From a virus: a stretch of DNA of 64,000 nucleotides. The number at the start of each line of letters is the position of its first letter. Within the stretch, counting starts at the first letter, position 1. Location of the stretch: IMG/VR virus record IMGVR_UViG_3300042397_000475, positions 2,254-66,253 of that record; one strand, given 5' to 3'. The notes under the pieces were generated by a model, which saw only the letters and a list, made by a program, of their open reading frames with translations, made no database searches and was not told the DNA's origin. Shown here piece by piece: positions 18,158 through 50,761 of the stretch. Both the position numbers and the translations under genes were made by a program.

Positions 18158-18802
18158 CTAGTATTTTGTAGACAAAATATCGCTTTGGCGCACTGTATAG
18201 TAGTCTTTTCCCTCAATCTTGTTTACAAAGTTTGAGTTCTTGTTTAACAAAACAAGCGAACCTGTGCTAATTCCCAGCTCATCTTCACCAACTAATGGCT
18301 TACCAATATGTACTAACCTAGCAAACTTAGTTGATGGCTTTTTATTGATACCAATTACTAGTCCAGATGCCGATGTTATAGCTTCAATTTTCTGACCACC
18401 AACTTCAACCGTATTAAACTCCTCTTCAACCACCGTCTCACATAAAGTCCAGCTGCCAACAGGTAATATATTACCACTCCTAACGACACAAAATACCCAA
18501 TAATAAGGTACTTTATAATAGTTCCCGTAGATACAGTTCGTTTCATCAGATGTAGTTAAGTAATGAAAGTAAATAATGTCTCCTACCTGCACTTCTTTTT
18601 CTATCTCAACGTTCTCTTCGTTGTAAGCCTTTCCATCAGGAACAGCTATGACACGACCATAGATTCTAGCGTATTGTGTAGGATTAAATTCAGGGTCTAT
18701 ATGGAGCTTTAAATTACCGAACTGGACAGTATCATCCATTGAAGCACCGACTTCAACCACGACCGTATTTGGTGGCGATTTTTTGATATCGTAAGTAAGC
18801 AT
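18158..18802 (-). CDS. GroES-like co-chaperonin (tandem domains)
   Basis: 214 aa; GRVIAVP...EVQVGDIIYF and TSASGLVIG GroES-like motifs; lies upstream of the terminase genes. Confidence 0.7.
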   Translation of the reverse strand: MLTYDIKKSPPNTVVVEVGASMDDTVQFGNLKLHIDPEFNPTQYARIYGRVIAVPDGKAYNEENVEIEKEVQVGDIIYFHYLTTSDETNCIYGNYYKVPYYWVFCVVRSGNILPVGSWTLCETVVEEEFNTVEVGGQKIEAITSASGLVIGINKKPSTKFARLVHIGKPLVGEDELGISTGSLVLLNKNSNFVNKIEGKDYYTVRQSDILSTKY

Positions 18803-19410
18803 TAAAATGTTTGTTTGGTTTGTAAAGGTAAAGATAGATAGATACCCACACATATCCAATTCTTTCCTCTATATGTTTCCACTGCCAGTTTGCTTTAAAC
18901 GCAGTTTTTTATAGCGTGTAGTTGTTTGTTGAAGGTTATATATATTATCGGACGGGTCGCGCACACGAATGGCAAACGGGATTTTCCGATGGGGTGGGTT
19001 CACTTTCCCAAATCCAAATTCCGAAATTATGGTCAATGTATCTATGTGGTACAATAAACAATTTCCTAATGTATCCTTGTGGTACAATGACTGCTGTGCT
19101 ATACTGTTCTACTCTCACGGCTACCACTTCGAGAGAATAAATGCAACAACGTTGCAAGAAGGAACTAATGTATGCAATGTAATGTACCAAAATGATGCAA
19201 TAGGATTAACTGAGGGCGTATTTGTCCAAGGCGAACTATCCGCCACACACCACACCCCTAAAAAAACCCCCCATTTTACTAGCATTCGATTTAAGGGGTC
19301 ATATCTTCGATTTAAGACACTTTACCCCCTCAAATGTCCATTCTATCCACCCTAAGCGAGATAATGCCTTAGACGCAAAATCGGGGTAATTTTGATGTTA
19401 AAAATTCTGC

Positions 19411-19539
19411 TATACGCGTGTACGTGTGTGATGTGCGCCTACGCGTGTGTACTCGCGTGTACGTGCGTGTATGTGCATACCTGCGCGACGTGTGTACGCT
19501 TGCGCGTGTCGTGATGTGCGCGCGATACGCGTGTGTGCG
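19411..19539. repeat. Alternating purine-pyrimidine tract (CG/TG/TA dinucleotides)
   Basis: tatacgcgtgtacgtgtgtg...gcgcgcgatacgcgtgtgtgcg, ~130 bp, non-coding, at the strand switch. Confidence 0.85.
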
Positions 19540-19680
19540 GTTTCAGTATCTTTTAAAGGGGATTCTCTGAGAAAAGTACAAAAAGGGTATATTTTCGTTG
19601 TATTATTCTAAGAAAATGGGGATTTCGTCGACACATTTCGGGATTTCGTCTCATATCTAGGTTATTTTAAGGGGGTGCTA

Positions 19681-19710
19681 TTGTAAATCAAAAAGTTTAG
19701 GCAATCTTTG
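19681..19710 (+). promoter_or_regulatory. Probable early promoter (TTG ... AATCTTTG)
   Basis: Near-consensus Bacteroidota -33/-7 elements directly upstream of the structured RNA. Confidence 0.55.
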
Positions 19711-19717
19711 TAATGTC

Positions 19718-20133
19718 ATCACGGGGAAACGTCCTCAGAGGCAAAATATCCACTTTTTGTGGGGGTAAAGAGAACACCCTAAATTCTCCCTGTCCCGAAA
19801 GAGGGGCATTGCAGGCAAGTATACTGAACGCACGGATTGGCTCAGTAAGTAGAACGCCCCACATAGCACCATTACGCTAGGCACTTGGATGAGCAGTTTA
19901 TCGCTCCAGTGTATAAACCTCCCGACCTGATACATACGATGGTCGACTGCGGTAGTCAGCTAGGTTAAACCCGATGCCCCCGCGATATGTGAGCCTCTAC
20001 TTGCATCCCTAATTGACGGAAGGTTAAAAGTTCTGCGCGGTAGAGGGAAGATTTTATGCAAGGTTCTGTGGACTGAACCTGCCCGTCAGCAAAGGCGGTT
20101 ACAAAAGCGCCACTCATTCAAGGCTTATGAATA
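19718..20133 (+). ncRNA. Large structured non-coding RNA, family unknown
   Basis: GC-richer, no credible ORF; more than 10 complementary helices, including a closing helix 19718-26/19978-86 and crossing helices 19994-20001/20039-46, 20000-06/20056-62, 20014-19/20083-88. Confidence 0.65.
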
Positions 20134-20134
20134 C

Positions 20135-20188
20135 GGCTAGTCAGGGTGCAAATGTCAATGGTGGGCGGTTCGATTCCGCCACTAGTCG
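20135..20188 (+). ncRNA. tRNA-like minihelix (acceptor stem + T arm, no D or anticodon arm)
   Basis: GGCTAGT/ACTAGTC 7-bp acceptor stem; GGCGG-TTCGATT-CCGCC T arm; only a 22-nt linker. Confidence 0.7.
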
Positions 20189-20203
20189 CTAACTTTCAAC
20201 TAT

Positions 20204-20225
20204 CCTTTCGGTGTAGGTAACCGAA
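20204..20225 (+). promoter_or_regulatory. Conserved pre-ATG hairpin motif, copy 1
   Basis: CCTTTCGGTGTAGGTAACCGAA; ATG at 20235. Confidence 0.85.
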
Positions 20226-20234
20226 TCAAATCTT

Positions 20235-20513
20235 ATGAAATTCAATGTATTAGCAGAAGCAATGTTACAAATCAAGGAGTTAGGCTTAGAGGGTACAAAC
20301 TTTGGAATTAAGCAAAGTGTGTACGACGATGGCAAAGGCAAGTATGAGGTTGTGACCGTCGAGGTAAAGTTTGATGTCGACCTAATGAAGAAGTTGACCG
20401 CTATTAGCAATCACGTTAGCTTCAAACCATCGGTAGATGGCAAAGAGCGCTACCTAGGATTCAATACGGTGAGAGGTAGCGAAGGCGATAGACTGGACTT
20501 TAAACTAGTGTAA
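20235..20513 (+). CDS. Early hypothetical protein (92 aa)
   Basis: Preceded by motif copy 1; its TAA stop lies within hammerhead stem I. Confidence 0.8.
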   Translation: MKFNVLAEAMLQIKELGLEGTNFGIKQSVYDDGKGKYEVVTVEVKFDVDLMKKLTAISNHVSFKPSVDGKERYLGFNTVRGSEGDRLDFKLV

Positions 20514-20557
20514 CTGATGAGGCTTGAATAGCCGAAACCCCTACGGGGGTCTTACAC
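20508..20557 (+). ncRNA. Hammerhead ribozyme, type I (copy 1)
   Basis: Stem I GTGTAA/TTACAC; CTGATGA; stem II GGCT-tgaat-AGCC; GAAA; stem III CCCC-tacg-GGGG; GUC cleavage triplet at 20549-51. Confidence 0.93.
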
Positions 20558-20563
20558 ACTTAT

Positions 20564-20584
20564 CCTTGCGGTGTAGGTAACCGC
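20564..20584 (+). promoter_or_regulatory. Conserved pre-ATG hairpin motif, copy 2
   Basis: CCTTGCGGTGTAGGTAACCGC; ATG at 20595. Confidence 0.85.
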
Positions 20585-20594
20585 GTCAAATCAA

Positions 20595-20843
20595 ATGAAT
20601 AATTTATCAGGCAAATTGTTAGCAATCAACGAAATCTCTAATGAAATCTTCGGGGGCGAAATGGCAGACACTTACGTTATCAGCGTATGGGACAAAGAAA
20701 TTACCTTCTCGTGCCATTACAAAAAAGAAATCGCGGCTAAGGCTATCGCAATGGATGGCGCTAAGTGCGAAGTTAATAGCAGTGGCTTTTCCACTATCAC
20801 ATTTAGACATTTTGACTTAGATATCAAAATCACGCTTTCCTAG
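20595..20843 (+). CDS. Early hypothetical protein (82 aa) flanked by two hammerheads
   Basis: Preceded by motif copy 2; TAG stop abuts hammerhead 2. Confidence 0.8.
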   Translation: MNNLSGKLLAINEISNEIFGGEMADTYVISVWDKEITFSCHYKKEIAAKAIAMDGAKCEVNSSGFSTITFRHFDLDIKITLS

Positions 20844-20891
20844 TGTAACTGATGAGTCCTAATGGACGAAACGCCTACGGGCGTCTTACAC
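20843..20891 (+). ncRNA. Hammerhead ribozyme, type I (copy 2)
   Basis: Stem I GTGTAA/TTACAC; CTGATGA; stem II GTCC-taat-GGAC; GAAA; stem III CGCC-tacg-GGCG; GUC triplet at 20883-85. Confidence 0.93.
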
Positions 20892-20897
20892 ACTTAA

Positions 20898-20919
20898 CCT
20901 TTCGGTGTAGGTAACCGAA
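20898..20919 (+). promoter_or_regulatory. Conserved pre-ATG hairpin motif, copy 3
   Basis: CCTTTCGGTGTAGGTAACCGAA; ATG at 20929. Confidence 0.85.
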
Positions 20920-20928
20920 TCAAATGCT

Positions 20929-21222
20929 ATGAATAACTTAATCGAAAAGTCTTACGAAATTGACAACTCTTGGACAATAACAAGAGCGGATGGCACAAGT
21001 TTGCCAATGCATAAAATTGTGAGCGTAAGGATTGCAGATGGTGATACGGTCATCTATTATTCAATACAAAGAACAAATGGCGTAGGCGAAAGTTACATCC
21101 TTATGCAAAGAAAAAATGCCAAACTCCACTACAATGAAAAAACATATTGGAAAAATTACGATGACAACGCAAAGTTTGAGCGCGCCATCAAAAGAATTGA
21201 GCGTATGGTTTCTAGTCTTTAA
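20929..21222 (+). CDS. Early hypothetical protein (97 aa)
   Basis: Preceded by motif copy 3. Confidence 0.75.
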   Translation: MNNLIEKSYEIDNSWTITRADGTSLPMHKIVSVRIADGDTVIYYSIQRTNGVGESYILMQRKNAKLHYNEKTYWKNYDDNAKFERAIKRIERMVSSL

Positions 21223-21235
21223 TCTTTCAACCAAA

Positions 21236-21256
21236 CCTTGCGGTGTAGGTAACCGC
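21236..21256 (+). promoter_or_regulatory. Conserved pre-ATG hairpin motif, copy 4
   Basis: CCTTGCGGTGTAGGTAACCGC; ATG at 21267. Confidence 0.85.
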
Positions 21257-21266
21257 GACACATCTT

Positions 21267-21485
21267 ATGAATACGAACAGAAAAATCAATATCGCTAACA
21301 CCATCACATATTTATGCGGGGCATTGCTTTCCTTATTCGCTCTTACGGGCTTAGTTAAGGCGTGGTACTTTAGTGACCCAACAATCGACACGGGTGCACA
21401 TTGGATTGTATGCGCGTTCGGTATCATCACTATGTTTTTCTCGATGTTTGCAAGCGATGAGCAAAAAAAATCACGCAAGCAATAA
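21267..21485 (+). CDS. Small early membrane protein (2 predicted TM helices)
   Basis: 72 aa with two hydrophobic stretches; preceded by motif copy 4. Confidence 0.7.
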   Translation: MNTNRKINIANTITYLCGALLSLFALTGLVKAWYFSDPTIDTGAHWIVCAFGIITMFFSMFASDEQKKSRKQ

Positions 21486-21526
21486 TCGTTTCAACTATCA
21501 CACATTCACACACACACACAAATCTT

Positions 21527-22447
21527 ATGGCAACTCAAGCAGAATTAATCGACCAAATCAATGACACAATTATCGCGGGCTTACAAGCTAAGGGCTTACA
21601 ATGGTTCAAACCATTTAAGGATAGCTCCACCCTACAATGGAACGCTATAAACTCATCAGGCAAGGCTTACCGAGGTGTTAATCAGTTTATCCTATCAGCT
21701 AAGGCTATCGACAAAGGATGGGTTAATAAATGGTATACCTTTGCTCAAGTAAGCAAGCTAGATGGACGTGTTAACAAGGGCGAAAAGTCTACGGATGTAT
21801 ACCTTTGGAAGGTCAACTTTGCAGTAGAAATCGCGGGCAAAGTTCAATATTTCCCACGCATTGAGGATATCCCATCGCACCTACAAAAGCAAGCTAAGAA
21901 AGCGTTCTACCTACAGACATTTAAGGTGTTTTCTATATCACAAACCAATTTGCCTATAGACACCCCCGCTGAGCCTATCGAGGTTACAGAATTGGAAGCG
22001 GACGCACACGCTGAGTCTATCCTTCAGGCTTGGACTAGCGAGGTTGTAACTATTAAGCATTCAGGCTTAGGTCGCGCTTACTATTCTCCTAGCGGGGACT
22101 ACATCCATATGCCATCTAAGACTACAGACCAATGGAAATCGAACGGGGACTACTACAAAGTATTCTTTCACGAAGCTATCCATAGCACAGGTCATTCGTC
22201 ACGCCTTAATCGCTTAGATAAGACGGCAAACTTTGGCTCTGACGAGTATAGTAAGGAGGAATTAGTAGCTGAACTAGGCGCGCTATATTTAGAGGCTATC
22301 ACGGGCATTAAAACAATCGTCGACGATGTCAAAAACTCGCAGGCTTATATCAACGGATGGATTAGTAAATTAAAATCTGACCCTAAGTTGATTATGAGCG
22401 CCTCTACCAAGGCTCACGAAGCAGTAGAATTAATCCTATCCAAGTAA
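21527..22447 (+). CDS. ardC: ArdC-family ssDNA-binding antirestriction protein with zincin-like metallopeptidase domain
   Basis: W.KPF, YRGVNQFIL, WYTFAQ, V.KGEKS, AYYSP..DYIHMP, FHEAIHSTGH..RL.R, YSKEELVAELGA, SQAYINGW. Confidence 0.9.
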   Translation: MATQAELIDQINDTIIAGLQAKGLQWFKPFKDSSTLQWNAINSSGKAYRGVNQFILSAKAIDKGWVNKWYTFAQVSKLDGRVNKGEKSTDVYLWKVNFAVEIAGKVQYFPRIEDIPSHLQKQAKKAFYLQTFKVFSISQTNLPIDTPAEPIEVTELEADAHAESILQAWTSEVVTIKHSGLGRAYYSPSGDYIHMPSKTTDQWKSNGDYYKVFFHEAIHSTGHSSRLNRLDKTANFGSDEYSKEELVAELGALYLEAITGIKTIVDDVKNSQAYINGWISKLKSDPKLIMSASTKAHEAVELILSK

Positions 22448-22462
22448 TTTCCACTATCAAAA

Positions 22463-22485
22463 CCTTGCGGTGTATAGGTAACCGC
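22463..22485 (+). promoter_or_regulatory. Conserved pre-ATG hairpin motif, copy 5
   Basis: CCTTGCGGTGTATAGGTAACCGC; ATG at 22494. Confidence 0.85.
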
Positions 22486-22493
22486 TCACTATT

Positions 22494-22733
22494 ATGGCAC
22501 GTTCAAAAAAAACAATTAGTGTATCTAATATGATAGATTATGCTAATGCTAATCTAGCAAGAACAGATGTATATGCAACTAAAGAATTTAAAGTAGGTAT
22601 CACAATTATGATAGAAGAAATTTTGCATAGAACAGATAATTATTGGGGCTTTATGTTTCTAGACAATAACGACTCAAAAACGGATAGCCTTGGCTATTAT
22701 TCGAGAAAATACTTTAAGTCACATAAATTGTAA
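22494..22733 (+). CDS. Early hypothetical protein (79 aa)
   Basis: Preceded by motif copy 5. Confidence 0.75.
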   Translation: MARSKKTISVSNMIDYANANLARTDVYATKEFKVGITIMIEEILHRTDNYWGFMFLDNNDSKTDSLGYYSRKYFKSHKL

Positions 22734-22743
22734 AAACTAACAA

Positions 22744-22766
22744 CCTTGCGGTGTATAGGTGACCGC
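22744..22766 (+). promoter_or_regulatory. Conserved pre-ATG hairpin motif, copy 6
   Basis: CCTTGCGGTGTATAGGTGACCGC; ATG at 22776. Confidence 0.85.
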
Positions 22767-22775
22767 ATTAAGACT

Positions 22776-22949
22776 ATGAATAATAGATATGTAATCACAT
22801 TTGGATTTGAAGGAGAAAACGGCTTTCAAGTACAAAAATCCAAACCAATCCCAGCTAATGATGAGCAAGAGGCTTGCCAAATGTTATCTAATCAATTCGA
22901 AAATTACGAAGGTATTTCTATTGACATCCTTTTAGTAACTAAACAATAA
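22776..22949 (+). CDS. Early hypothetical protein (57 aa)
   Basis: Start moved to the ATG at 22776 following motif copy 6. Confidence 0.7.
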   Translation: MNNRYVITFGFEGENGFQVQKSKPIPANDEQEACQMLSNQFENYEGISIDILLVTKQ

Positions 22950-22957
22950 TCATTTAA

Positions 22958-22979
22958 CCTTGCGGTGTAGGTCAACCGC
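22958..22979 (+). promoter_or_regulatory. Conserved pre-ATG hairpin motif, copy 7
   Basis: CCTTGCGGTGTAGGTCAACCGC; ATG at 22990. Confidence 0.85.
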
Positions 22980-22989
22980 ATACACACTT

Positions 22990-23229
22990 ATGAAAGCATA
23001 CCCAAAAAAAGTAGTTGAGCGTCGCATCAACTTAACCTTAGACGAAGTAGAATCTATGGTCGAATTTCTTAAGGCAAATTACCCTAAGGAAAATCAATTA
23101 CCTGAAATAAAAACATCACTTAATAATATACTGATTGCCCTAGACTTTGAAGATGTAGAATCAGATGGATGGGAATTTTATAGCAATGGCAGTCGAGTTA
23201 ACTTAAACCCTAAACCCCTTTCATTATGA
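22990..23229 (+). CDS. Early hypothetical protein (79 aa)
   Basis: Start moved to the ATG at 22990 following motif copy 7. Confidence 0.7.
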   Translation: MKAYPKKVVERRINLTLDEVESMVEFLKANYPKENQLPEIKTSLNNILIALDFEDVESDGWEFYSNGSRVNLNPKPLSL

Positions 23230-23639
23230 AAATTCAAGAATTATTAGACTTGCGCACAGACGCATTCCAAAAGTATTTATTTGCTCCCGTTGTAATGAAT
23301 AAGGTCTACTCAAACGAAGATGAAATCGTTCAATTCACAGACACGGCTTTCATAGATAAACATACGGGCGATGTAGTTTACCTTGTTGAGTTTGGCATTG
23401 ACCGCTCCCATCCTCTGTATGGCGTTGTAGACCCTAGATATGGCTTTGTGGTTAGCGGATTTGAGCCTGATAGCGATGGAGGCTTCGAGTTTTCTTATCT
23501 ATATGAAATAGAAAATAATACTATTGCAGATTACGAAACGGCAGAAGACTTTTTAAAAAGTTACGAATTAGTCTTAGGCGTTACCCACGAAGTTGTAAAA
23601 ATCATTAATCGATATGTCGAAAGAAAAAACAGATATTAA
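23226..23639 (+). CDS. Hypothetical protein (137 aa, acidic)
   Basis: ATGA overlap with the upstream gene. Confidence 0.7.
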   Translation: MKIQELLDLRTDAFQKYLFAPVVMNKVYSNEDEIVQFTDTAFIDKHTGDVVYLVEFGIDRSHPLYGVVDPRYGFVVSGFEPDSDGGFEFSYLYEIENNTIADYETAEDFLKSYELVLGVTHEVVKIINRYVERKNRY

Positions 23640-23640
23640 T

Positions 23641-23868
23641 ATGGCAACAGTCAGAGAAATCCTAGAAACCAACAACGACTTGCGTTCACGTTATATCAAC
23701 GCAATCACAAACTTTTGCAAGGAGCGGATGCACTCTAAGTCAGGTGACAAAGAAGCGCCCGCTATCAGACAAATTATGGACATCTTCTTTTGGATGGGCG
23801 AAATATCTGAGAAGCAAATGGACTGGGTGGTGAAGTACGCTACCAAGAATCAAATCACTTTAAATTAA
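23641..23868 (+). CDS. Hypothetical protein
   Basis: Tightly packed ORF in the early operon. Confidence 0.65.
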   Translation: MATVREILETNNDLRSRYINAITNFCKERMHSKSGDKEAPAIRQIMDIFFWMGEISEKQMDWVVKYATKNQITLN

Positions 23869-23873
23869 TAGCA

Positions 23874-24071
23874 ATGAATGTCACTATCAACATTTTAGAA
23901 CTAGCAAGCGAACTTGCTGATAAAGAATTACGAGAGAAATGGGATTTCCGTGATGGACAAGCAGATGTCGATGACGGACACGGCGGTATAATGTATTCAG
24001 AAACCGCACAAGATATCTTTGATAGATTATACGACGAATATTATACAACCATAGACCAAATAAAGCAATGA
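23874..24071 (+). CDS. Hypothetical protein (65 aa, acidic)
   Basis: Tightly packed ORF. Confidence 0.65.
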   Translation: MNVTINILELASELADKELREKWDFRDGQADVDDGHGGIMYSETAQDIFDRLYDEYYTTIDQIKQ

Positions 24072-24274
24072 AAGCAAATTATGATTACCCTTTCTTTCTT
24101 TTTAGTAACCTAATTAGAGAGATGTATTTCACACAAGTAGAGGATATGGATTATGACCTTATGTTTGATGAGACAATCAAATTATACGAAGATTTTTTAG
24201 CATCAGAATTTAACACACAAAAGCAGAGTTATTACGAAACGATGCAACAATACATAGTTAACTTAATCGACTAA
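24068..24274 (+). CDS. Hypothetical protein (68 aa, acidic)
   Basis: ATGA overlap. Confidence 0.65.
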   Translation: MKANYDYPFFLFSNLIREMYFTQVEDMDYDLMFDETIKLYEDFLASEFNTQKQSYYETMQQYIVNLID

Positions 24275-24278
24275 ACAA

Positions 24279-24479
24279 ATGAAAACAATTGAAATCAAAT
24301 GGAGTACAGAAGATGTGCTAATGCAAGCAGAAAATTTGGATATCAAATTAACTGAAGACCAAGCAGACGAAATTTTAGAAAGTTTGGGTGATAATCACGA
24401 TGCAACAATCGGAATAAATTGGGATGTTATCTCATTTTATATCGAAGATTATTCAAGAAGAGAAAACATATTTAAATAA
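24279..24479 (+). CDS. Hypothetical phage protein (66 aa, acidic)
   Basis: Packed ORF; W..EDV...LT..QA.EIL...HDA.IGINWDVI. Confidence 0.7.
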   Translation: MKTIEIKWSTEDVLMQAENLDIKLTEDQADEILESLGDNHDATIGINWDVISFYIEDYSRRENIFK

Positions 24480-24483
24480 CCTT

Positions 24484-24696
24484 ATGAGACAGTCAGATAA
24501 ACTTAAGCAGTACCTAGCAGATTATATGGCAGAAATAGATGCCATTAACTTTCCCGAAAAAACTTATGAAGAACATTTCATTAAAAATATGAAACTAAGG
24601 GATTTTGATTTACTCGCATATTGGCTACACTATAACGGTGTATTTGATGGCGGAGAAGATATGCTATCTAAACTAAAAATATTAATAACTGAATAA
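24484..24696 (+). CDS. Hypothetical protein
   Basis: ATG at 24484 directly after the upstream stop. Confidence 0.6.
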   Translation: MRQSDKLKQYLADYMAEIDAINFPEKTYEEHFIKNMKLRDFDLLAYWLHYNGVFDGGEDMLSKLKILITE

Positions 24697-24703
24697 CAAC
24701 CTT

Positions 24704-24871
24704 ATGACAAAGCACGAAGCAACCAAAGCCCTAGCAGACAAATTGCTAGAAGAATTACGCACGAAATTAGCGGACAGAATGTATACGTCTGATGGCGGAA
24801 CTAATGGAGAGTTCTACGAAGAGTTTACCTTAATAGATGACATTCAAGCGCTTGTAAGCGCACTAGACTAA
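24704..24871 (+). CDS. Hypothetical protein (55 aa, not in ORF track)
   Basis: MTKHEATKALADKLLEELR...VSALD*; fills the gap in the operon. Confidence 0.6.
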   Translation: MTKHEATKALADKLLEELRTKLADRMYTSDGGTNGEFYEEFTLIDDIQALVSALD

Positions 24872-24930
24872 ACACAAATGAATCACGAAGACTTAGCCCA
24901 CCTAATGTGGCTACTAAACAACAACAAGTA

Positions 24931-25158
24931 ATGAGCAATCAGAGAGAAAAAATTATCAACGCGATACAAGATTGTCGTGTTGAAGACATCTCGGTAAGAG
25001 AGATGGAGCATTTTGCAAAATTGTATACGGATGAATTAGTCGACGTGTTGATTAATGAACTATACGAAAAGCACAAAGCGCTAGAAGATAACATATCAGC
25101 GTGTAACGTAGAGACTAAGAGACTGCTAGACATCATAGAAAATGGCAACAACCTTTAA
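24931..25158 (+). CDS. Hypothetical protein
   Basis: Packed ORF. Confidence 0.6.
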   Translation: MSNQREKIINAIQDCRVEDISVREMEHFAKLYTDELVDVLINELYEKHKALEDNISACNVETKRLLDIIENGNNL

Positions 25159-25414
25159 TGTAATCATAAACCCGTTCTTACAAAGAATGTGTGTGTATGC
25201 CCGCGTCAACAAGGTTGACTGCGAGGCAATTATTCCCTACGGAAGTTTAGATGAATGGAATGCATTCGAGTTCAATGGCGTGGTATTTGACATCCACTTG
25301 CTATACGATGAAGACATCGAAGTTAGCATCTATGAAGTAAAGGATGGTATCACGGCTGAGTATCAGAATCCATCTCCAGTTAAACTTACAATCAGAACTA
25401 AAGATGAATTCTAA
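25142..25414 (+). CDS. Hypothetical protein (90 aa)
   Basis: Overlapping packed ORF. Confidence 0.65.
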   Translation: MATTFNVIINPFLQRMCVYARVNKVDCEAIIPYGSLDEWNAFEFNGVVFDIHLLYDEDIEVSIYEVKDGITAEYQNPSPVKLTIRTKDEF

Positions 25415-25513
25415 AAACTCCTACGTCGACCTAATAGAGGTCGTTATAATTATCATATCAATATGTGTCGCATATTATTTAATCGTATTATAAATATTTT
25501 AAAACCAAACAAA

Positions 25514-25828
25514 ATGAAAAATCAAGAAAAAATTGAGTTCGATTACGCGTTGTATCAGATTGGATTATATGACGCATACATTAACTATCATTCAGAGCAA
25601 CCATTTGAAATTATCTCTATCAGAAATGGGTATGCTATTGGATGGAGAGGTGACATCGCCACTAACGTAAGCGTTACCGACATCTATCTATCCAAACGCC
25701 CGCGCAAAGTATGGGTACACATCATCGAATCGCCCGAAGGTTTACTAACGTCACGCGTTACTGACTATCAAGATGTATCTACCTACAAGGGAAACACAAT
25801 CGTTAAACAAATCGAGGTAGAGATATGA
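25514..25828 (+). CDS. Hypothetical protein
   Basis: ATG at 25514 follows an AACCAAACAAA leader. Confidence 0.65.
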   Translation: MKNQEKIEFDYALYQIGLYDAYINYHSEQPFEIISIRNGYAIGWRGDIATNVSVTDIYLSKRPRKVWVHIIESPEGLLTSRVTDYQDVSTYKGNTIVKQIEVEI

Positions 25829-26058
25829 GAAAGTTATCAAATGAATTAGTAGTAATCCTTATTGGATTTTTCTGCTTGGTAGGTGTAGCATTAACGCTAT
25901 ACCTATCACGCGATTCAGGTAAGTATACCATCAAAACAGAGTTTAGTACCTATTGCGCAGACAACTTTAGAGTCTACGGCAAGGGCATTACATTCACCAC
26001 CTCCGATGGTCGGAAGGTTATTACACAAGGTAATTTTGAAATCTATATAAATAAATAA
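25825..26058 (+). CDS. Small membrane-anchored protein
   Basis: 77 aa with an N-terminal hydrophobic helix. Confidence 0.65.
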   Translation: MRKLSNELVVILIGFFCLVGVALTLYLSRDSGKYTIKTEFSTYCADNFRVYGKGITFTTSDGRKVITQGNFEIYINK

Positions 26059-26061
26059 ATT

Positions 26062-26304
26062 ATGACACCATACGAAAAGGCTAAAGACTTGGTACGTAGA
26101 TACTATCAGATAGTACCAAACTTTGACACGGCAAAGGACTGCGCAGGATTAGCGGTCTATGAATTAATTGAGGATAGAATCAGCAAGGGTCTAGATGCTG
26201 AAGACTTACAACAACTACGCATAGAGATTTATGCGCTAGGTAGCCCGCATATTAACACAGAGGCTAGAGTAGATAGATTTAATGAAGAACTTAACAACAA
26301 CTAA
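26062..26304 (+). CDS. Hypothetical protein
   Basis: 80 aa; MTP.EKAK.L...AK.CA..AV.E pattern recurrent in Bacteroidota phages. Confidence 0.65.
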   Translation: MTPYEKAKDLVRRYYQIVPNFDTAKDCAGLAVYELIEDRISKGLDAEDLQQLRIEIYALGSPHINTEARVDRFNEELNNN

Positions 26305-26316
26305 ACAACAGAAAAA

Positions 26317-26592
26317 ATGAGAAAAGTAGTAGCAACATATTTAACAAAAGAATCAGGTACTAAAAAAGAAATCTATGAGGTATACAATCCTAATGTAGAC
26401 ACAAGCAAGTTAATCCAAGGGTCAAAGTATTTGGTAGAGTATCGTCTATTAAACAAGGTAGTCTCAGATTTTGGTGTATTCCTTGAGGGAACTCCAGACT
26501 TTAGGACACTAATCTTTACGCACCCACGTGAAATGTTTAGGACTATTGGTATTCCGACAATGAATATAAATAATCTAACATTGGTTGACTAA
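26317..26592 (+). CDS. Hypothetical protein (91 aa)
   Basis: Packed ORF. Confidence 0.65.
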   Translation: MRKVVATYLTKESGTKKEIYEVYNPNVDTSKLIQGSKYLVEYRLLNKVVSDFGVFLEGTPDFRTLIFTHPREMFRTIGIPTMNINNLTLVD

Positions 26593-26615
26593 TTAAAACT
26601 AATGTTGTACATTTG
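26585..26615 (+). promoter_or_regulatory. Promoter of the replication operon (TTG ... TACATTTG)
   Basis: Bacteroidota -33/-7 consensus. Confidence 0.7.
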
Positions 26616-26625
26616 AATCGTACAA

Positions 26626-26720
26626 TCGGATGAGGTGAAGTTGCGGTCAACTCATTCGGTATTCAAGGCAACTTGAACCGCCCCCTTACCTGCGCAACAA
26701 GGTTTGGGGGTTTATTTTTT
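26626..26720 (+). promoter_or_regulatory. Structured leader / attenuator with intrinsic terminator
   Basis: Hairpins 26626-59 and 26662-77 (GCAA tetraloop); terminator 26681-26710 plus TTTATTTTTT; loops GTTGCG and CGCAAC are complementary. Confidence 0.65.
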
Positions 26721-26725
26721 GCGCT

Positions 26726-26962
26726 ATGGAAGAAGAAGTTATTTACGAAAATCCATTTGTAGGCGATGAGCTAGAAATTATGTGTCACAGAGCGATACTT
26801 AATATGCGCAAGGTTCGCCTAGAGAAAGATATAAGAGACTACTCTCAGTTGTTTAGGTACGCAACACCTGAGATGGAGGCATTCGAGAAATTAGTAAATA
26901 TTGTCGAGGGTCTAGTTAAAGACCTAAGCGAAGTAAACGAGAAGTTAACACAAGCAATATGA
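26726..26962 (+). CDS. Hypothetical coiled-coil protein (78 aa)
   Basis: First gene after the leader; overlaps the initiator start. Confidence 0.65.
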   Translation: MEEEVIYENPFVGDELEIMCHRAILNMRKVRLEKDIRDYSQLFRYATPEMEAFEKLVNIVEGLVKDLSEVNEKLTQAI

Positions 26963-27606
26963 ATTTTATCACAATCCCATATGATTTATTGGCGCGTACA
27001 GACTTGACCGCATCAGAAAAGAATCTGATGGGATTAATTCATAGTTTGTCAGCTAAGGAAGGGTATTGTTTTGCTAGTAATCAGTATTTAGCTGATGCAT
27101 TAGGAATGAAGTTATCAGGCGTAAGGAACTGCTTAACAGAACTTTATTCAAAGGGTTTAATCACTAGAGTTATCAAGAGAAAAGACAATAATGAAATTGA
27201 ATCTAGAGAGATAAAATTGGTTACCCCTCTGATGCTAGAACAACATACCCCTATGATGCCACAGCAACATACCTCTGATGCCACAGCATCACATAATAAA
27301 GAAACTAATATAAAAGAAAATAATAACTCTATTGAACGCTTCGAAGAGTTTTGGAATATCTACAATAAACGCGTAGGTAAAGAGAAGACAAAGACTAAAT
27401 GGTCTAAGTTAAAACAGAAGGAAGTAGATGCAATATTCTTAGCACTACCAAGCTATGTAGCTAGTAGAGAAGTTAAGTTTAGAAAAGACCCTGAAAGATA
27501 CCTGACTCATAGAGTTTGGGAGGATGAGATGCCAAGCGATTCGCCTGCTTCAATTCCACTATCAGCAAATAAGATAACTGAAATCATAATCCCAACTGAC
27601 TTTTAA
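26959..27606 (+). CDS. Replication initiator (N-terminal HTH, lambda-O/DnaD-like)
   Basis: GYCFASNQYLA..LG HTH; internal iterons; C-terminal FEEFWNIY..RVGK...KDPERYL..RVWEDE; directly upstream of dnaB. Confidence 0.85.
   Translation: MNFITIPYDLLARTDLTASEKNLMGLIHSLSAKEGYCFASNQYLADALGMKLSGVRNCLTELYSKGLITRVIKRKDNNEIESREIKLVTPLMLEQHTPMMPQQHTSDATASHNKETNIKENNNSIERFEEFWNIYNKRVGKEKTKTKWSKLKQKEVDAIFLALPSYVASREVKFRKDPERYLTHRVWEDEMPSDSPASIPLSANKITEIIIPTDF
27222..27335 (+). repeat. Replication origin: 3 iterons (TACCCCTMTGATGC-N5-CAACA) plus AT-rich tract inside the initiator gene
   Basis: 24-bp period repeats at 27222, 27246 and 27270, then A-rich 27293-27335; lambda-ori-like layout. Confidence 0.8.
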
Positions 27607-33463: not shown

Positions 33464-33577
33464 AGTCAGGTGGCGGAATGGGTTGTATTAGGGGTTTCCC
33501 AGCCGATGGTATACGCTATAAATGTAATAAGTCTATAAAGCATTTATATTTTACAGGTTCGAATCCTGTCCTGACTA
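33464..33577 (+). ncRNA. tRNA-like RNA A (D-loop insertion, non-canonical anticodon arm)
   Basis: AGTCAGG/CCTGACT acceptor stem; TGGCGGAA...GGTATACGC D arm with insert; ACAGG-TTCGAAT-CCTGT T arm. Confidence 0.75.
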
Positions 33578-33702
33578 CAAAATCATTCCAATTGGTACAC
33601 GAGAGATAAAACGGTCGAGTTCAAATCTTCTTTGGGGTCTTACGAACTGAAAATGGCATTCTAGGAAGTTCAAGGATGATAACCTTGGTGATTTTAAAAA
33701 CT

Positions 33703-33789
33703 AGTCAGGTGGCAGAAATTATGGTAATGTTATAAATGTAATAAGTCTATAAAGCATTTAATGTACAGGTTCGAATCCTGTCCTGACTA
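33703..33789 (+). ncRNA. tRNA-like RNA B (non-canonical anticodon arm)
   Basis: Same acceptor stem and T arm as A; shares the identical 30-nt TATAAATGTAATAAGTCTATAAAGCATTTA arm. Confidence 0.75.
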
Positions 33790-33961
33790 CTAGGAGCCCT
33801 TTAGGCTACATTAACAGACCGACATTTTGGACTGAGATGATTAATGATAGAAGCATATTAATGGGGCTAAATTTAATTATATTGATATGTTTTGAGAGCA
33901 ATGCCTATTAACACGTAGTTGCATCATTAATAAAAATTGACTGCTGGAAAGACAGCAATTT

Positions 33962-34054
33962 AGTCAGGTAGCTTAAAGGTCATAAGGAAATTGACCCTTG
34001 AGGATTAGAGCACTCGAAAGAGATGAGGTGTGGGTTCGATTCCCACTCTGACTA
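33962..34054 (+). ncRNA. tRNA-like RNA C (anticodon arm replaced by CTC-GAAA-GAG)
   Basis: AGTCAGG/TCTGACT acceptor stem; D arm with GGTCA/TGACC hairpin insert; GTGGG-TTCGATT-CCCAC T arm. Confidence 0.72.
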
Positions 34055-34067
34055 CTAGATTTAAGAT

Positions 34068-40602: not shown

Positions 40603-40746
40603 TTACTTCTTTTTTGACGCAAGATACTTAAAATAATTTACTTGTTTCTCACGTTTTTCTATACCTGCTTTAGTCTTAGCAGTTCCTAAGTTACGACCAG
40701 TTGTTTTGGAGACTAACTTGTAGCCTCCTTTTATTTTCTTTATCAT
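40603..40746 (-). CDS. Small basic peptide (47 aa, not in ORF track)
   Basis: MIKKIKGGYKLVSKTTGRNLGTAKTKAGIEKREKQVNYFKYLASKKK*; ATGA-coupled to the 2467 aa gene. Confidence 0.7.
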   Translation of the reverse strand: MIKKIKGGYKLVSKTTGRNLGTAKTKAGIEKREKQVNYFKYLASKKK

Positions 40747-43700
40747 TTTTTGATAGATTTTTGTTCGTTATTATAAGCTTCAAGATAATATGGTATAACT
40801 GCTTTATCCCACATCTTTAAGACAATTAAATCTTTTAGTAATTTAACTGCCTCAGGAGATTTATTAGGAGCTAATAAGTCCTGATTAAGTTGATAAATCA
40901 TCTTACCTTGGCTCACTGGACTCTTTTCAAACATAATTTGAGCATACTCATTTTCAAACTGAGGATAATTAATTGTATTCTTTGTCTTTAAGAATGTGTA
41001 GTATTTAGCTGCGCCGCTTAAGAATTCTTCTCCATTGTTATTGACAATAGTTCCTACTGCGTCAAAGTTTTTACCTGCTTTAACAGCTTCTGAAATCTGT
41101 GTTTTCACAATCTGATATCTTCTGTTTTCGGCTTTTTGAATAACATCAAATGTTTCTTTAAGACCATTCTTATATACAATTTTAGGGTCTGATACATCTA
41201 CAGCTCTATTTTTTATAGCGCCTAAGAATGCCATTGGTATATCAGTTAAGTTACCTGTCTCATATTTAGAGCGTTGTTCAGGCTTAAGATTACCAATGCT
41301 AAATGTATTAATAGATTTATCCATTAAAGAATACGCCATTTGGACAAGAGGGTTAGATACAGGTAATATGTCCTCTAAAGCCTTCTGACCTCTGATTGGA
41401 GAAATTCCACCTGTCTTATATTCTGTTCCTCTTATGTTAGTTGTAGTAGCTGTAGCAGCACCTAAAACTTTCATAAACTCAGTAACCTTTTTATTATCAG
41501 CACCTTCTTCCCAATCCTCTACTTTTGGACCGTTGTAAATAGGTCTATTTCTCCAAGTATCAATGTTATTTGAATACTCTTTAATTGCTTTGTATGCAGG
41601 AGGGAAGAATGAAGATGTAGATGGCAGCAAAACAGATAATGATTTCTGCAACCTATCTGCTTTCCAAGCTTCTAATTCCTTTTCTTTTCCATCAATGCTT
41701 CTATAGTAGATACCCTCAGCTTGATTTTGGAATATATTCAAAAACCCTTTTACTGTATTTGGTACAGCTATTTTTGTATAAGCGCGCGTCCCATCTTCAT
41801 TCTTAAATGGATGGAAAATAACAATGTTCTTAAGTAAATCATTCTGAACATCATCATTGTCGTAATCGTCTCCTGCTACCATTAAATTATATATCGTAAT
41901 AGCAGCTAAAGCGCCACCTACAGCGCCAATTTTTTTAGTAAATTCTTTAGGGTTATTAATAATATACTCAGCAGTTATTTTGTTTGCTTGAGTTAATACG
42001 TTCAAGTAAGGAATAAATCCATCTAACCATTTGGTAGCCAAGCCGCCTCTATGGTAATCCATTGCAGCACGAGCTTTAAAAGCTGCTTTTGCTTTAATTT
42101 TTTCTAAATCTACACCTTCTGCATCTCTTCCGTTTTTCTTATTGTATTCCTCAAGCATTGTATCGCGCATAGTTTTATACGCGTTAAGCTTAGATGCCAA
42201 CTCGGAAATATTACCAAGTAAACCTAGAGCTTCGCCCACTTTACCTGCTATATTAGCTTCCATAGTTTGAGTCAACATCAAACCACCAGCCTGACCATAT
42301 TCTAAAATAAGGTTATTTATATCAGTATTATCACCCAACTTAAATTCAGCCTTAAGAAGTTCCTCGGCTAAATTTAATGTACCTGTAACAGCTTGTTGGT
42401 ATTGACCTGCAACACCGCCTGCATAAATATCATTTAAGTGGACTTGAGATATAATATCAACAGGAATATTACTGATAGGGAACGCCATATTCATACCAGT
42501 TGCAATAGCTCTAACAATTGCCGCACCTGTTGAATTGCTAATGATTTTATAGTAAATGTTACTTTTGTCAAATAACTGTTCATCATAAAATTCTTTAGCT
42601 AAATTATCTCTCATTTGGAAAGCATAACTCTTGCCATCTACCTTATAATACATATTTCTGAATGCATTATTCTTCCCTGCATTATCAGCTGCTAATATCT
42701 TAGGAGAACCATCAGGATTCATCTTAATTGTTCCGTCAGAATATCTATCGTAATTAGCTTCCTTAATCCAATCGTAATTAGCAGTTACCATTTCGTCGTG
42801 TAAAACCTTAGTAGCTTTATTTGTAGCAACCTTAACTTCAGCAGCAATCATCGCGGCGTGTAATAGCTTTTCGGTATCTAATTCTAATAATTCTTCTGAG
42901 CCACCAGTGATATTGTTTATATCTTTTTTAGTAACTAACGAGCCTCTAGAATTGAATGAATTCAAAGTTATTCCTGATAATTCATTGTTCTGAATACCAT
43001 ACATAAACATCATAAACTGCCTAGGACTATAGTTATAGTCTTTATACATATTATATGTTGCTTCGTCAATAATTCCGTTGTCAAATTTATATTTTAAAAT
43101 ATCGCTAAATGCTTTAAAGTATTTATCGCTGCGAGAATATAATGCATCGTAAGCTTCCTTACCTAATAATCTTTCCATATCAGCAAGCGTTTTCTTTGCT
43201 GAAACTTCATTAGTTGGAACATCTTTTTTAGTTGCATAATCTGTATGTGATGTATGTAACACAGTTGGCTTGTCTCTTAAATCTTTCTGCAAATCAGCAA
43301 TCTGCTTTTTAATAGACTTAATGTCATTAGCACTTGTTGCAGTTTTAAGAATACCTTTAAGAAAATCAATTCTATCAGTTAATTGTTTGCGCAGATTAGC
43401 TCTATTATTATCAATCGCAATAACTCTTCTAAGGAATATAATATCATCTAATAGTTTTCTATTGCTTTTGCTAACTCCTTCATATATCTCCTTATATCTT
43501 TCTGCAAACTTTAAAGTTCCAAAATTAGAAGCTCCTGCTTTGTTGTACATAGCATATAAAGCGTACTCAAAATCTGCTTGCTCAAAAGCTTTCTTAACAT
43601 TAATATTTCTTTCAAAAAGAGCTTTTACTATACCATTCCAAACAGTCGTTAAATTAGCCTTTCTTAATGCCTCTAATTCATCACGCTTGTTTTGCATAAT

Positions 43701-49705: not shown

Positions 49706-50761
49706 TTAATTACGAGTTGAGAACCATTGTTTATTTATAGGGTCCCAAGAATATTGAGAATCAAAAGTTTGTTGCGCATCCATTACAGGAGTTCCTACTT
49801 TAAATCCGCCAGGAGCCATTGCTGCGAATGAAAAATCTTGCCCCGTCGACCCCATTAAAGGGTTTCCTAATAAAGAAGTTGAATCAGACTTAACTCCTGA
49901 TGAGCCAAATATACCTAGTCCAGTTGGGTTAAATTGACCGCTAGAAAAGAATGAGCCTAATTTGTTCATAGTTTTTTGATTAGCCTGATTGCCTCCTCCA
50001 TATATTTTAGTAAGCATATCCATATTATCTTTTTGGTTTTGCATTTGCAACATCCCCATACCTAATCCTGAAGCAATACCTCCAATTCCTGAATAAATAG
50101 CACTTCTAGCTTCTTGAATTGCTGCAGCTTTAGCTTGTTCTTGGTCAAACAATTGTTGATTAAGATTCATCTCGCCTTCTAACTTATTCTGAGTAACACC
50201 CATAATATTAGCTTGTCTATTAGCTAAAGAAGAAAACTCTAAGCCTCTTTCTCTCATTGCAGCTGCAGCAGTTTGACCTAGAGCAGCTAATTGATTTTGC
50301 TGAGCTTGATTCTGTAATGCAAATTGCTGCTCTGCTGAACGTGCACTAATAGCGTTTTGAGCTTGATTTTCTCCTTGTTGAGATAATAAAGCAGCTGTCA
50401 TAATATCTGTGCCACTACCAGCTCCTCTTGTTGCTGCAGCTAATGCGTTAGCAGATGTTTGTGCTGCTTGGTCTCTAGCAATTTGTTCTCCAGCTCCACG
50501 CGATTGACCTGATGCCATACGCTTAGCTAAGTCAGCTTGCTGCTCTACTTTAGTAAAACGAGAAATATCTCCTTGATATGTAGGTGTTGATTTTGCTTGA
50601 GACAATAGGTCTGCGTAACCTGTATCGAATGCGCTTCTTTGTTGTCCTGCAAAAACACGTTGATTAGCTAATTGTCTTTTGGCTTCGTTTTTCTTGCCAA
50701 CAGCTCCAATTACATTCATTGCGCCTCCTGCTGCTCCTAAAAGTAATGATGGTAATGCCAT
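49706..50761 (-). CDS. Putative DNA pilot / ejection protein (351 aa)
   Basis: A/Q/G-rich with N-terminal LLLGAAGGAMNVIGAVG and internal GIGGIASGLG segments. Confidence 0.65.
   Translation of the reverse strand: MALPSLLLGAAGGAMNVIGAVGKKNEAKRQLANQRVFAGQQRSAFDTGYADLLSQAKSTPTYQGDISRFTKVEQQADLAKRMASGQSRGAGEQIARDQAAQTSANALAAATRGAGSGTDIMTAALLSQQGENQAQNAISARSAEQQFALQNQAQQNQLAALGQTAAAAMRERGLEFSSLANRQANIMGVTQNKLEGEMNLNQQLFDQEQAKAAAIQEARSAIYSGIGGIASGLGMGMLQMQNQKDNMDMLTKIYGGGNQANQKTMNKLGSFFSSGQFNPTGLGIFGSSGVKSDSTSLLGNPLMGSTGQDFSFAAMAPGGFKVGTPVMDAQQTFDSQYSWDPINKQWFSTRN

Follow-up and report, generated by a model that had tools for sequence, protein, structure and literature searches.

The 64,000-nt stretch analysed here (the window: bases 2254-66253 of the 66,253-nt phage genome in IMG/VR record IMGVR_UViG_3300042397_000475) carries, at the start of a rightward run of small early genes, seven copies of a hairpin motif placed just ahead of their start codons. 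Comparison of the copies with those of other phages indicates that selection has preserved the element as a hairpin, that it is read in one orientation and that, in most cases, it is tied to a start codon. Very different phages of Bacteroidota have it in common, and it is not peculiar to one early region. Its structure, strand specificity, distance from the start codon, spread across phages and restriction to a single phylum are all directly visible in the sequences compared, and it is apparently a small, undescribed RNA element. Our preferred reading, held tentatively and with somewhat less than even confidence, is of a sense-strand RNA leader element through which a host component, most likely the ribosome, would drive Shine-Dalgarno-independent initiation.

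A regular expression that allows indels in the loop (CCTTKCGGTGT-N(0,2)-AGGT-N(0,2)-ACCG) matches the window at exactly seven sites, all on the + strand, at 20204, 20564, 20898, 21236, 22463, 22744 and 22958, and finds nothing in 100 dinucleotide shuffles; every copy listed in an earlier reading made from the letters of the window (hereafter the sequence-only reading) was thereby recovered. The distances which that reading gave between the end of the stem and the ATG (10, 10, 10, 10, 8, 9 and 10 nt for copies 1-7) were reproduced exactly, and its remark that the motif was unseen outside 2.8 kb of the window extends to the full 66,253-nt genome, whose two strands hold the same seven copies only, none of them on the - strand. 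A looser pattern run on the whole genome adds one chance match, at 50571, which is unpaired. Each copy in this phage is laid out as ACCUU or UCCUU, a 5-bp stem (GCGGU/ACCGC or UCGGU/ACCGA) and a 7-9-nt loop (GUAGGUA, GUAUAGGUA, GUAUAGGUG or GUAGGUCA):

20204..20224, + strand: motif copy 1; CCUU, stem UCGGU/ACCGA, loop GUAGGUA; ATG at 20235 of a 92-aa open reading frame (ORF); covariance-model score 40.8 bits
20564..20584, + strand: motif copy 2; stem GCGGU/ACCGC; ATG at 20595; 12 nt past the predicted cleavage site of hammerhead ribozyme 1
20898..20918, + strand: motif copy 3; stem UCGGU/ACCGA; ATG at 20929; 12 nt past the predicted cleavage site of hammerhead ribozyme 2
21236..21256, + strand: motif copy 4; ATG at 21267; 13 nt past the stop codon of the preceding ORF
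22463..22485, + strand: motif copy 5; 9-nt loop GUAUAGGUA; ATG at 22494; downstream of an anti-restriction-like gene
22744..22766, + strand: motif copy 6; loop GUAUAGGUG; ATG at 22776; covariance-model score 40.4 bits
22958..22979, + strand: motif copy 7; 8-nt loop GUAGGUCA; ATG at 22990

Copy 3 is also followed by an earlier, out-of-context ATG at 5 nt, which opens only two codons, the start of its ORF lying at 10 nt. The ORFs behind the seven copies encode 57-97 aa and are unrelated to one another, as had been proposed: BLASTP finds no mutual similarity (best E-value 1.5).

The minimum-free-energy fold of all seven copies is the same hairpin, at -7.0 to -10.9 kcal/mol; the start codon is free of pairing in five of these folds, and in the remaining two its A alone is paired. 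Fold z-scores of the single sequences are modest (-0.2 to -2.0). The case for the hairpin rests on comparative data. Covariation of the stem, as claimed in the sequence-only reading, comes down within the window alone to a single swap of the outer pair, from G-C to U-A, and becomes strong once relatives are added. The covariance model which that reading had proposed as a check was built from 30 copies and searched against the window and relatives' loci at E up to 1, where it returned 79 matches in the window and 15 relatives' loci (71 of them distinct), all on the early-gene (coding) strand. Pairing reaches 98.9% of cells over the 71 distinct sequences, compared with 86.9 +/- 0.9% in shuffles (none of 500 as high) and 18-56% in alignments slid as a control, and compensatory changes on both sides occur at four of the five stem pairs. 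Regular expressions recover further stems in relatives, namely UCCGU/ACGGA, CCUGU/ACAGG, UUGGU/ACCAA, CUGGU/ACCAG and GUGGU/ACCAC. Whilst the stem varies, ACCUY, the loop G, AGG and a closing U-A plus A remain invariant, giving a consensus in which ACCUY leads into a freely varying 5-bp stem whose loop has G, in most cases UAU or U next, then AGG, one or two variable bases and A; the loop is 7-10 nt long across instances and the whole element ~22-25 nt. CCU is present in all 79 copies of the model set and AGG in 77 of them. Where the flank was left free in the search pattern, ACCUC preceded 53 of 53 distinct instances, and where the loop triplet was left free it was AGG in 53 of 54, the sole GGG variant being one that would keep a U-G pair. 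As both triplets are invariant, a CCU:AGG helix offers no covariation to count; the base preceding CCU and the base following AGG do not covary.

The relatives were drawn from a terminase search, which gave 33 loci at 73-99% identity and a distant group at 33-38%. Model matches occur in 15 of the 33 closer loci, and diverged forms of the motif were picked up by regular expression only in L075, L088-L090 and L096; for the remaining closer loci without a motif match, early-region coverage of each was not established. The model found no match in the 12 loci searched from the distant terminase relatives, at 35-38% identity. Over the 79 copies, the stem ends 7-13 nt before an ATG in 77 and an ORF of at least 40 aa comes next in 76, the upstream ORF stops 1-10 nt (mode 8) before CCU in 38, and the motif never lies inside a gene and keeps a single orientation throughout. 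Together with the covarying stem, the confinement to the coding strand and the fixed spacing bear out the proposal of a structured, strand-specific element at start codons. Two motif types can be distinguished, CCUU-NCGGU and CCUC-NCGAU, and the block of CCUU-NCGGU copies stands upstream of the CCUC-NCGAU block in L076, L077, L085 and L086, and likewise in L078 except for its first copy. In the early regions of the same five loci, spacer subfamilies track each motif type. Blocks of homology between the window and one relative (L064) end at a motif copy or its ATG, at 20588, 22496, 22737 and 22995, and block ends fall at 22484-22501 in comparisons with six further relatives' loci.

Beyond these relatives, the motif was collected with a pattern that fixes CCUY, a 5' stem of DCGRU and a loop start of GUAUAGG and leaves the 3' stem free. 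It matches at least 123 stretches of viral contigs that range from ~4 kb to 327 kb. Among the matches listed there are 122 distinct viral instances, of which 104 form all five pairs, 14 form four and 4 form three or fewer, the control for full pairing with shuffled 3' halves being 2.9%; their internal pairs include 10 G-U and 0 A-C, and their outer pair 5 G-U and 2 A-C. The presence of G-U wobbles without internal A-C mismatches points to folding of the sense strand, since a fold of the other strand does not predict such a bias. Again among the matches listed, an ATG-ORF begins 5-14 nt after 62 of the 104 viral full hairpins and after 42 of the 57 full hairpins on bacterial contigs. The same pattern was run over one genome per prokaryote species, where the matches listed include 80 titled loci; with host labels taken from record titles, many of them of metagenome bins, full pairing is found in 34 of 50 instances from Bacteroidota vs none of 24 from other phyla, and 25 of those 34 have an ATG at 5-14 nt. 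Five motif-bearing Bacteroidota genomes hold between one and four model matches each, and the eight bacterial regions inspected are prophage-like runs of small same-strand ORFs, several of them with phage-typical genes (YopX, ASCH, DUF551, a Tad2-like anti-defence gene, HNH with a small terminase).

The viral carriers include a porcine microvirus and a capybara microvirus, with the motif of the latter placed after the capsid gene and ahead of the following coding sequence (CDS); in the Microviridae record MK496766 (6-kb class, five or six annotated genes) those two bounds are a capsid stop at 2253 and a CDS start at 2303. Among crAss-like phages (records MT774375 and OQ198718, the latter on Bacteroides cellulosilyticus), the Crassvirales phage cr50_1 and Kolpuevirus 'frurule' (host Bacteroides cellulosilyticus) each have a rightward CDS whose ATG follows the motif after 8-10 nt. 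Flavobacterium phages hattifnatt9-1 and V175 and Riemerella phage GDF21 are further named carriers. In phage V175 (L407, 5004-5100) an unannotated 16-codon ORF begins 9 nt after the motif, the next annotated CDS lying 87 nt on. The 327-kb contig has nine clustered matches on one strand, with the additional stems UCCAU/AUGGA and UCAAU/AUUGA.

Such carriers share no polymerase, replication system or virion type and are confined to phages and prophages of Bacteroidota, which argues for a host component as the partner of the element, and its position before start codons argues that this component is the ribosome. We infer that the element acts as RNA and that its effect is positive. In the mechanism we envisage, the folded hairpin would dock on the platform side of the 30S subunit, possibly locked in its docked form by a 3-bp CCU:AGG pseudoknot, and would take the place of the Shine-Dalgarno duplex, setting an AUG 8-10 nt downstream in the P site. 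The conserved bases may take part in the CCU:AGG tertiary pairing or in a contact with a ribosomal protein. For the phage, the gain would be genes that are initiated efficiently and irrespective of context although the host makes no use of Shine-Dalgarno pairing. Within the early transcript of this phage, the element would stand between cistrons, either ~8 nt past the stop codon of the preceding gene or immediately behind a processing site of hammerhead or tRNA-like type, a placement from which each small gene would be initiated independently. The tight packing of the element between ribosome footprints, seen in the stop-to-CCU distance of 1-10 nt in 38 of 79 copies, supports this reading, as do start codons left wholly or mostly unpaired in the folds of the seven copies and the rarity of Shine-Dalgarno motifs in this phage. 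Of the ideas offered in the sequence-only reading, a translation enhancer or operator appears the best fit. A bolder version, which on the same sequence evidence we consider doubtful, would make the motif a portable, structure-based ribosome recruiter, the counterpart of a minimal internal ribosome entry site (IRES), which would have arisen in phages of Bacteroidota as a substitute for Shine-Dalgarno pairing. It would be paired through CCU:AGG, bind a conserved feature of the 30S platform, hold the AUG in place 8-10 nt downstream and have been exchanged among Microviridae, crassviruses and 300-kb jumbo phages, since a gene that carries it could be translated at once in whichever Bacteroidota host.

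Several observations weigh against a ribosome-directed leader. Among the matches listed, 42 of the 104 viral full hairpins have no ATG-ORF at 5-14 nt: in 4 it begins at 0-4 nt, in 14 at 15-30 nt and in 10 at 31-79 nt, and 14 have none within 80 nt, although some of these cases may be artefacts of short flanks or of non-ATG starts. In hattifnatt9-1 no ATG occurs in the 55 nt read past the motif, a TAnnTTTG-like box being found there instead, and Riemerella phage GDF21 has its ATG at a distance of 21 nt. No exact 6-9-mer complement of the loop exists in two Bacteroidota 16S rRNAs, and the motif-bearing Chryseobacterium genome G007 (16S gene L410) has a 16S 3' end of ...GGAACATCTCATTT, without CCUCC. 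Simple pairing of AGG with an anti-Shine-Dalgarno sequence is therefore unlikely, given also a spacing of 17-20 nt; the Bacteroides-type genome G006 retains a 16S 3' end of ...CACCTCCTTT. It must also be considered that a stable hairpin so near an AUG could equally hinder initiation, and that a protein partner would account for the conserved bases just as well. Finally, the covariance-model alignment is itself fitted to the structure, for which the pattern-based test with its free 3' half compensates.

The phage is tailed: terminase, portal, tail fibre and endolysin genes are present, as are genes for a replication initiator and a DnaB-type helicase. PHROGs, Pfam and PDB sequence searches of its ORFs recovered neither a DNA nor an RNA polymerase. 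Among the sequencing runs listed as holding 18800-27000, 24 are of DNA and none is of RNA. Five of its 79 genes have a Shine-Dalgarno-like motif, and its late genes have A-rich leaders, several of them with an upstream TAnnTTTG box, which is the Bacteroidota -7 promoter consensus. The motif array opens the rightward unit after a 1.4-kb non-coding divergent region, and the following features lie in or around it:

19387..19394, + strand: candidate early promoter; the only + strand TAnnTTTG box in 18800-20300
20134..20189, + strand: tRNA-like minihelix; 8-bp acceptor-like stem on a 5-bp T-arm, UUCGAUU loop; from the fold
20508..20557, + strand: hammerhead ribozyme 1; topology of type I; core CUGAUGAG...CGAAAC...GUC; cleavage predicted after C20551
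20843..20891, + strand: hammerhead ribozyme 2; type I; RF00163 at 34.4 bits vs a gathering score of 34; predicted cleavage after C20885
26680..26721, + strand: terminator-like hairpin; GC-rich stem then a U-run; conserved in ten or more relatives; separates the small early genes from those for replication

By its sequence the box at 19387 is a candidate promoter for the whole early unit, and the hairpin at 26680-26721 is the likely terminator (or attenuator) at its end. Just 3' of the box, 19400-19545 is a GC-rich tract of alternating purines and pyrimidines with GCGTGTGTAC-like units in AT-rich surroundings, for which Rfam gives noise only. Some 450 nt of GC-rich non-coding sequence follow at 19700-20190, which may be a processed leader RNA, with the minihelix at its end closing a non-coding leader of ~800 nt; copy 1 of the motif starts ~15 nt downstream of the minihelix. 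The minihelix is not called as a tRNA by ARAGORN or Rfam; its modelled fold makes it a possible processing signal for RNase P/Z, and relatives have a similar T-arm just upstream of their first motif copy (6 of the 79 copies have a T-arm upstream).

The two hammerheads, which sit between the first three genes of the array, bear out the ribozymes to which the sequence-only reading had alluded. Both show the CUGAUGA...GAAA...UH core, three-way junction and open stem I of the type I class and are predicted to cleave themselves, each cut leaving 12 unpaired nt before the CCU of the next copy. Hammerhead 1 is the weaker match, at 23.1 bits (E 1.7) to RAGATH-1-hammerhead, below Rfam gathering scores, with a z-score of -3.4 for its three-way junction fold. 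Across the family a hammerhead precedes 7 of the 79 copies, with the motif 11-18 nt past the cleavage site, and 66 of 79 have neither ribozyme nor tRNA-like element upstream. Before the copies here that have no hammerhead, a G-free box (TTTCAACTAT, TTCAACCAAA or TTCCACTATC) occurs at 20190-20203, 21222-21235 and 22447-22462 and recurs in relatives; it may be a cleavage site. One gene within the array, at 21485-22447, encodes a 306-aa anti-restriction-like protein (phrog_7245) and has no hairpin of its own: the TTTCAACTAT box is still present upstream in its leader, followed by a run of CA repeats that reaches the ATG.

Alternative explanations for the hairpin can be set against these findings. 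It might mark the boundary of, and stabilise, monocistronic mRNAs, protecting their 5' ends once the polycistronic early transcript has been cut and insulating the start region from upstream sequence. The cuts would be made by the hammerheads, by RNase P/Z acting on the tRNA-like element, or by an endonuclease of the host, RNase Y for example, with the structure downstream as its guide. The copies that lie 11-18 nt past a hammerhead site (two of seven here, seven of 79 in the family) or past a T-arm (six of 79) are consistent with this, as is RNase Y, which scores above its family cut-off in all five motif-bearing Bacteroidota genomes, and the layout of ribozyme, hairpin and start resembles the synthetic RiboJ insulator. 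We nevertheless consider it unlikely. The great bulk of copies, 66 of 79, lack an upstream ribozyme or tRNA-like element; cleavage leaves 12 unpaired nt before CCU, and 5'-terminal protective hairpins in E. coli tolerate only a few; RNase J, the bacterial 5'-exonuclease, is above cut-off in none of the five genomes; and an invariant loop and flank at a tight distance from the ATG are unexplained by protection alone. The narrower proposal of the sequence-only reading, a protector for the 5' ends of ribozyme-cut mRNAs, suits the two copies that follow a hammerhead here but is weakened by the family figure, the 12-nt tail and the lack of RNase J above its cut-off in the five genomes. Operator function, with an RNA-binding protein encoded by the host or by many phages that times or limits translation of accessory genes in the manner of coat-protein or RegA-type operators, seems to us less probable again. 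Invariant ACCUY, loop G, AGG and closing U-A plus A around a variable stem are typical of a hairpin recognised by protein, and two types in a fixed operon order (L076, L077, L085 and L086, and L078 bar its first copy) would suit two regulators or timing classes. However, 6-kb Microviridae and phages very different from them share no candidate regulator, so that the protein would need to come from the host, it is hard to explain why phages should keep a site for host repression, and no candidate protein was identified.

A site acting in DNA ranks below the operator and strikes us as improbable, whether as a promoter of hairpin or T7-like type that serves an unrecognised polymerase, as a site of priming, or as one of recombination through which gene cassettes are exchanged. 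In its favour, the TATAGG of the loop resembles the start-site region of T7-type promoters, homology blocks shared with relatives end at the motif or ATG, and the stems of extruded DNA hairpins would covary too, as in the early promoters of phage N4 (PMC4496689). Set against this, no polymerase gene was found among the phage ORFs, the 2467-aa virion protein has no DFDxD motif, and PF00940 is found in none of five other motif-bearing viral records, a weak result because the search control was silent. Microviridae with five or six annotated genes (MK496766) carry the motif, the ten internal G-T and zero A-C appositions run contrary to a hairpin in the template strand, the loop measures 7-10 nt vs 3 nt in N4 promoters, and no integrase or recombinase lies next to the array. 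The idea of a recombination handle for cassettes, also raised in the sequence-only reading, is right in that blocks shared with relatives end at the motif or ATG; these ends are better read as a consequence of the repeat than as its function, because any shared 30-nt repeat would yield them. Least credible of all, to the point of being far-fetched, is a selfish repeat, a palindrome spread as a miniature mobile element or by gene conversion, whose start-codon context is tolerated or brought along and which does the phage no good. Copies and spacers do form near-identical subfamilies within a genome, yet a 25-nt consensus is kept from Microviridae to Crassvirales with compensatory changes in the stem, all 79 matches have one orientation and none is within a gene, and there are no target-site duplications, terminal repeats or associated transposase.

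Comparison with described elements leaves the motif without a family. Over the whole window, Rfam 15 at gathering thresholds returns only Hammerhead_1 and two tRNAs; across 18500-24000 at E up to 5 nothing overlaps any motif copy; and in 22440-23000, which holds three copies, a search at E up to 10 gives only a 15-nt partial match of copy 7 to COG2908 RNA (11.6 bits, gathering 58.7, E 8.8). The possibility raised beforehand, that the motif might belong to an Rfam family, is thus answered in the negative for Rfam 15. Full-text searches, including searches for motif strings, found no published description, subscription journals and supplements being outside their coverage. For phage phi14:2, the available part of the report describes no common motif upstream of early transcripts (10.1101/2020.03.07.982082), and P_BfP1E6 is presented, in what is available of its description, as a standard promoter.

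Known classes of element were also tried and set aside. None of the seven copies appears in a terminator scan and the spacers here are mixed C/A/U, which speaks against an intrinsic terminator; in AT-rich phages some copies are followed by a U-rich spacer, and a 5-bp stem with a 7-10-nt loop is weak for a terminator. Integron attC sites are imperfect palindromes of 55-140 nt with extrahelical bases and an integrase nearby, compared with ~22-25 nt here and no integrase or recombinase beside the array. A T7-type promoter, for which dyad symmetry is not required, finds no PF00940 or PHROG polymerase among the window ORFs and leaves the covarying stem unexplained; a crAss-type virion polymerase promoter fails on the 2467-aa protein, which has no DFDxD and no Pfam, PHROG or PDB match. 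A resemblance to the last hairpin of 16S rRNA, noticed against a non-Bacteroidota sequence, does not carry over, as the region differs in two Bacteroidota 16S genes. A block to 5'-exonucleases like that of exonuclease-resistant RNAs (xrRNAs) was dropped, RNase J being above its family cut-off in 0/5 motif-bearing Bacteroidota genomes.

Among known systems, the T4-type PeSL elements, reportedly set out by Arbiol et al. in 2010 as promoter-early plus stem-loop repeats flanking small early genes, come close: in both cases a short stem-loop repeat stands ahead of many small unrelated early genes, with mosaic junctions at the repeat. A PeSL cassette was rejected, however, since the host-type promoter within PeSL has no counterpart here: no TAnnTTTG box lies in or beside the copies, the only + strand box in 18800-20300 being that at 19387. 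PeSL elements are also known from T4-like phages only, whereas the motif spans phage realms from single-stranded DNA Microviridae to Crassvirales and keeps a fixed interval of 7-13 nt to the ATG. Shine-Dalgarno sites and leader enhancers likewise lie just upstream of the AUG with 30S recruitment as the presumed role, and AGG(U) in the loop is formally Shine-Dalgarno-like. A Shine-Dalgarno site is purine-rich and lies 5-9 nt before the AUG; the AGG here is inside a loop and ends 17-20 nt before it, the motif-bearing Chryseobacterium has no CCUCC at its 16S 3' end, and the motif is a structure with a covarying stem, not a linear sequence, in hosts that do not use such pairing, so this class too was rejected.

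In the synthetic RiboJ insulator a hammerhead and a hairpin precede the ribosome-binding site, and copies 2 and 3 repeat that order as hammerhead, 12 nt, hairpin and start region; the motif, by contrast, is natural, has no ribozyme in 72 of 79 copies, and has a conserved loop and flank that are absent from the synthetic hairpin. Phage N4 hairpin promoters, which are 3-nt-loop hairpins in the template DNA strand and need a virion RNA polymerase, share with it a small, covarying 5-bp stem with conserved bases, repeated at the start of the early region. Its 7-10-nt loops, sense-strand wobbles, lack of any such polymerase in our searches and presence in Microviridae set it apart, and led us to reject an N4-type promoter. 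Compact H-type pseudoknots such as the preQ1-I riboswitches are similar in size (~25 nt) and likewise combine a 5-bp stem with a loop able to pair to a triplet beside it, close to the translation start. In the motif that triplet lies 5' of the hairpin and the putative second helix would have only 3 bp, and there is neither sign of a ligand pocket nor an Rfam match. As with the plastid intercistronic expression element, intercistronic placement would yield independently translatable units; the plastid element differs in that, according to the available part of its report, it acts through a bound protein that blocks exonucleases (PMC2230500).

How phages of Bacteroidota compete for ribosomes is, to our knowledge, not known. 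Their hosts keep but hide the anti-Shine-Dalgarno sequence, and the choice of start sites is only partly understood. An element of 25 nt with conserved sequence and structure at a fixed distance from the AUG offers a concrete and easily mutated handle on that choice, and it is common to the main phage groups of gut and aquatic Bacteroidota, including crAss-like phages that grow on laboratory strains of Bacteroides. Should the ribosome-directed reading hold, the motif would provide a compact, host-range-wide expression part for engineering Bacteroides and Flavobacterium, and a marker that predicts a Bacteroidota host for an uncultured phage. Were it a processing or operator site instead, it would still represent a new and very widespread family of phage RNA.

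Two further observations lie outside the array. Part of the 2467-aa virion protein (40743-48146, - strand) aligns at 25% identity with virion proteins of Cellulophaga phage phi46:3, and the protein resembles polyvalent injected proteins (Atlas clusters LPD39, LPD38 and MuF_C, with scores of at most 0.91), a resemblance to be taken as a lead only. At 33464-34055 the tRNA calls disagree: Rfam places them at 33464-33577 (114 nt) and 33962-34054, and ARAGORN at 33703-33790 (tRNA-Tyr, anticodon ATA) and 33962-34055 (undetermined), so that the tRNAs here are long or odd, perhaps containing introns.

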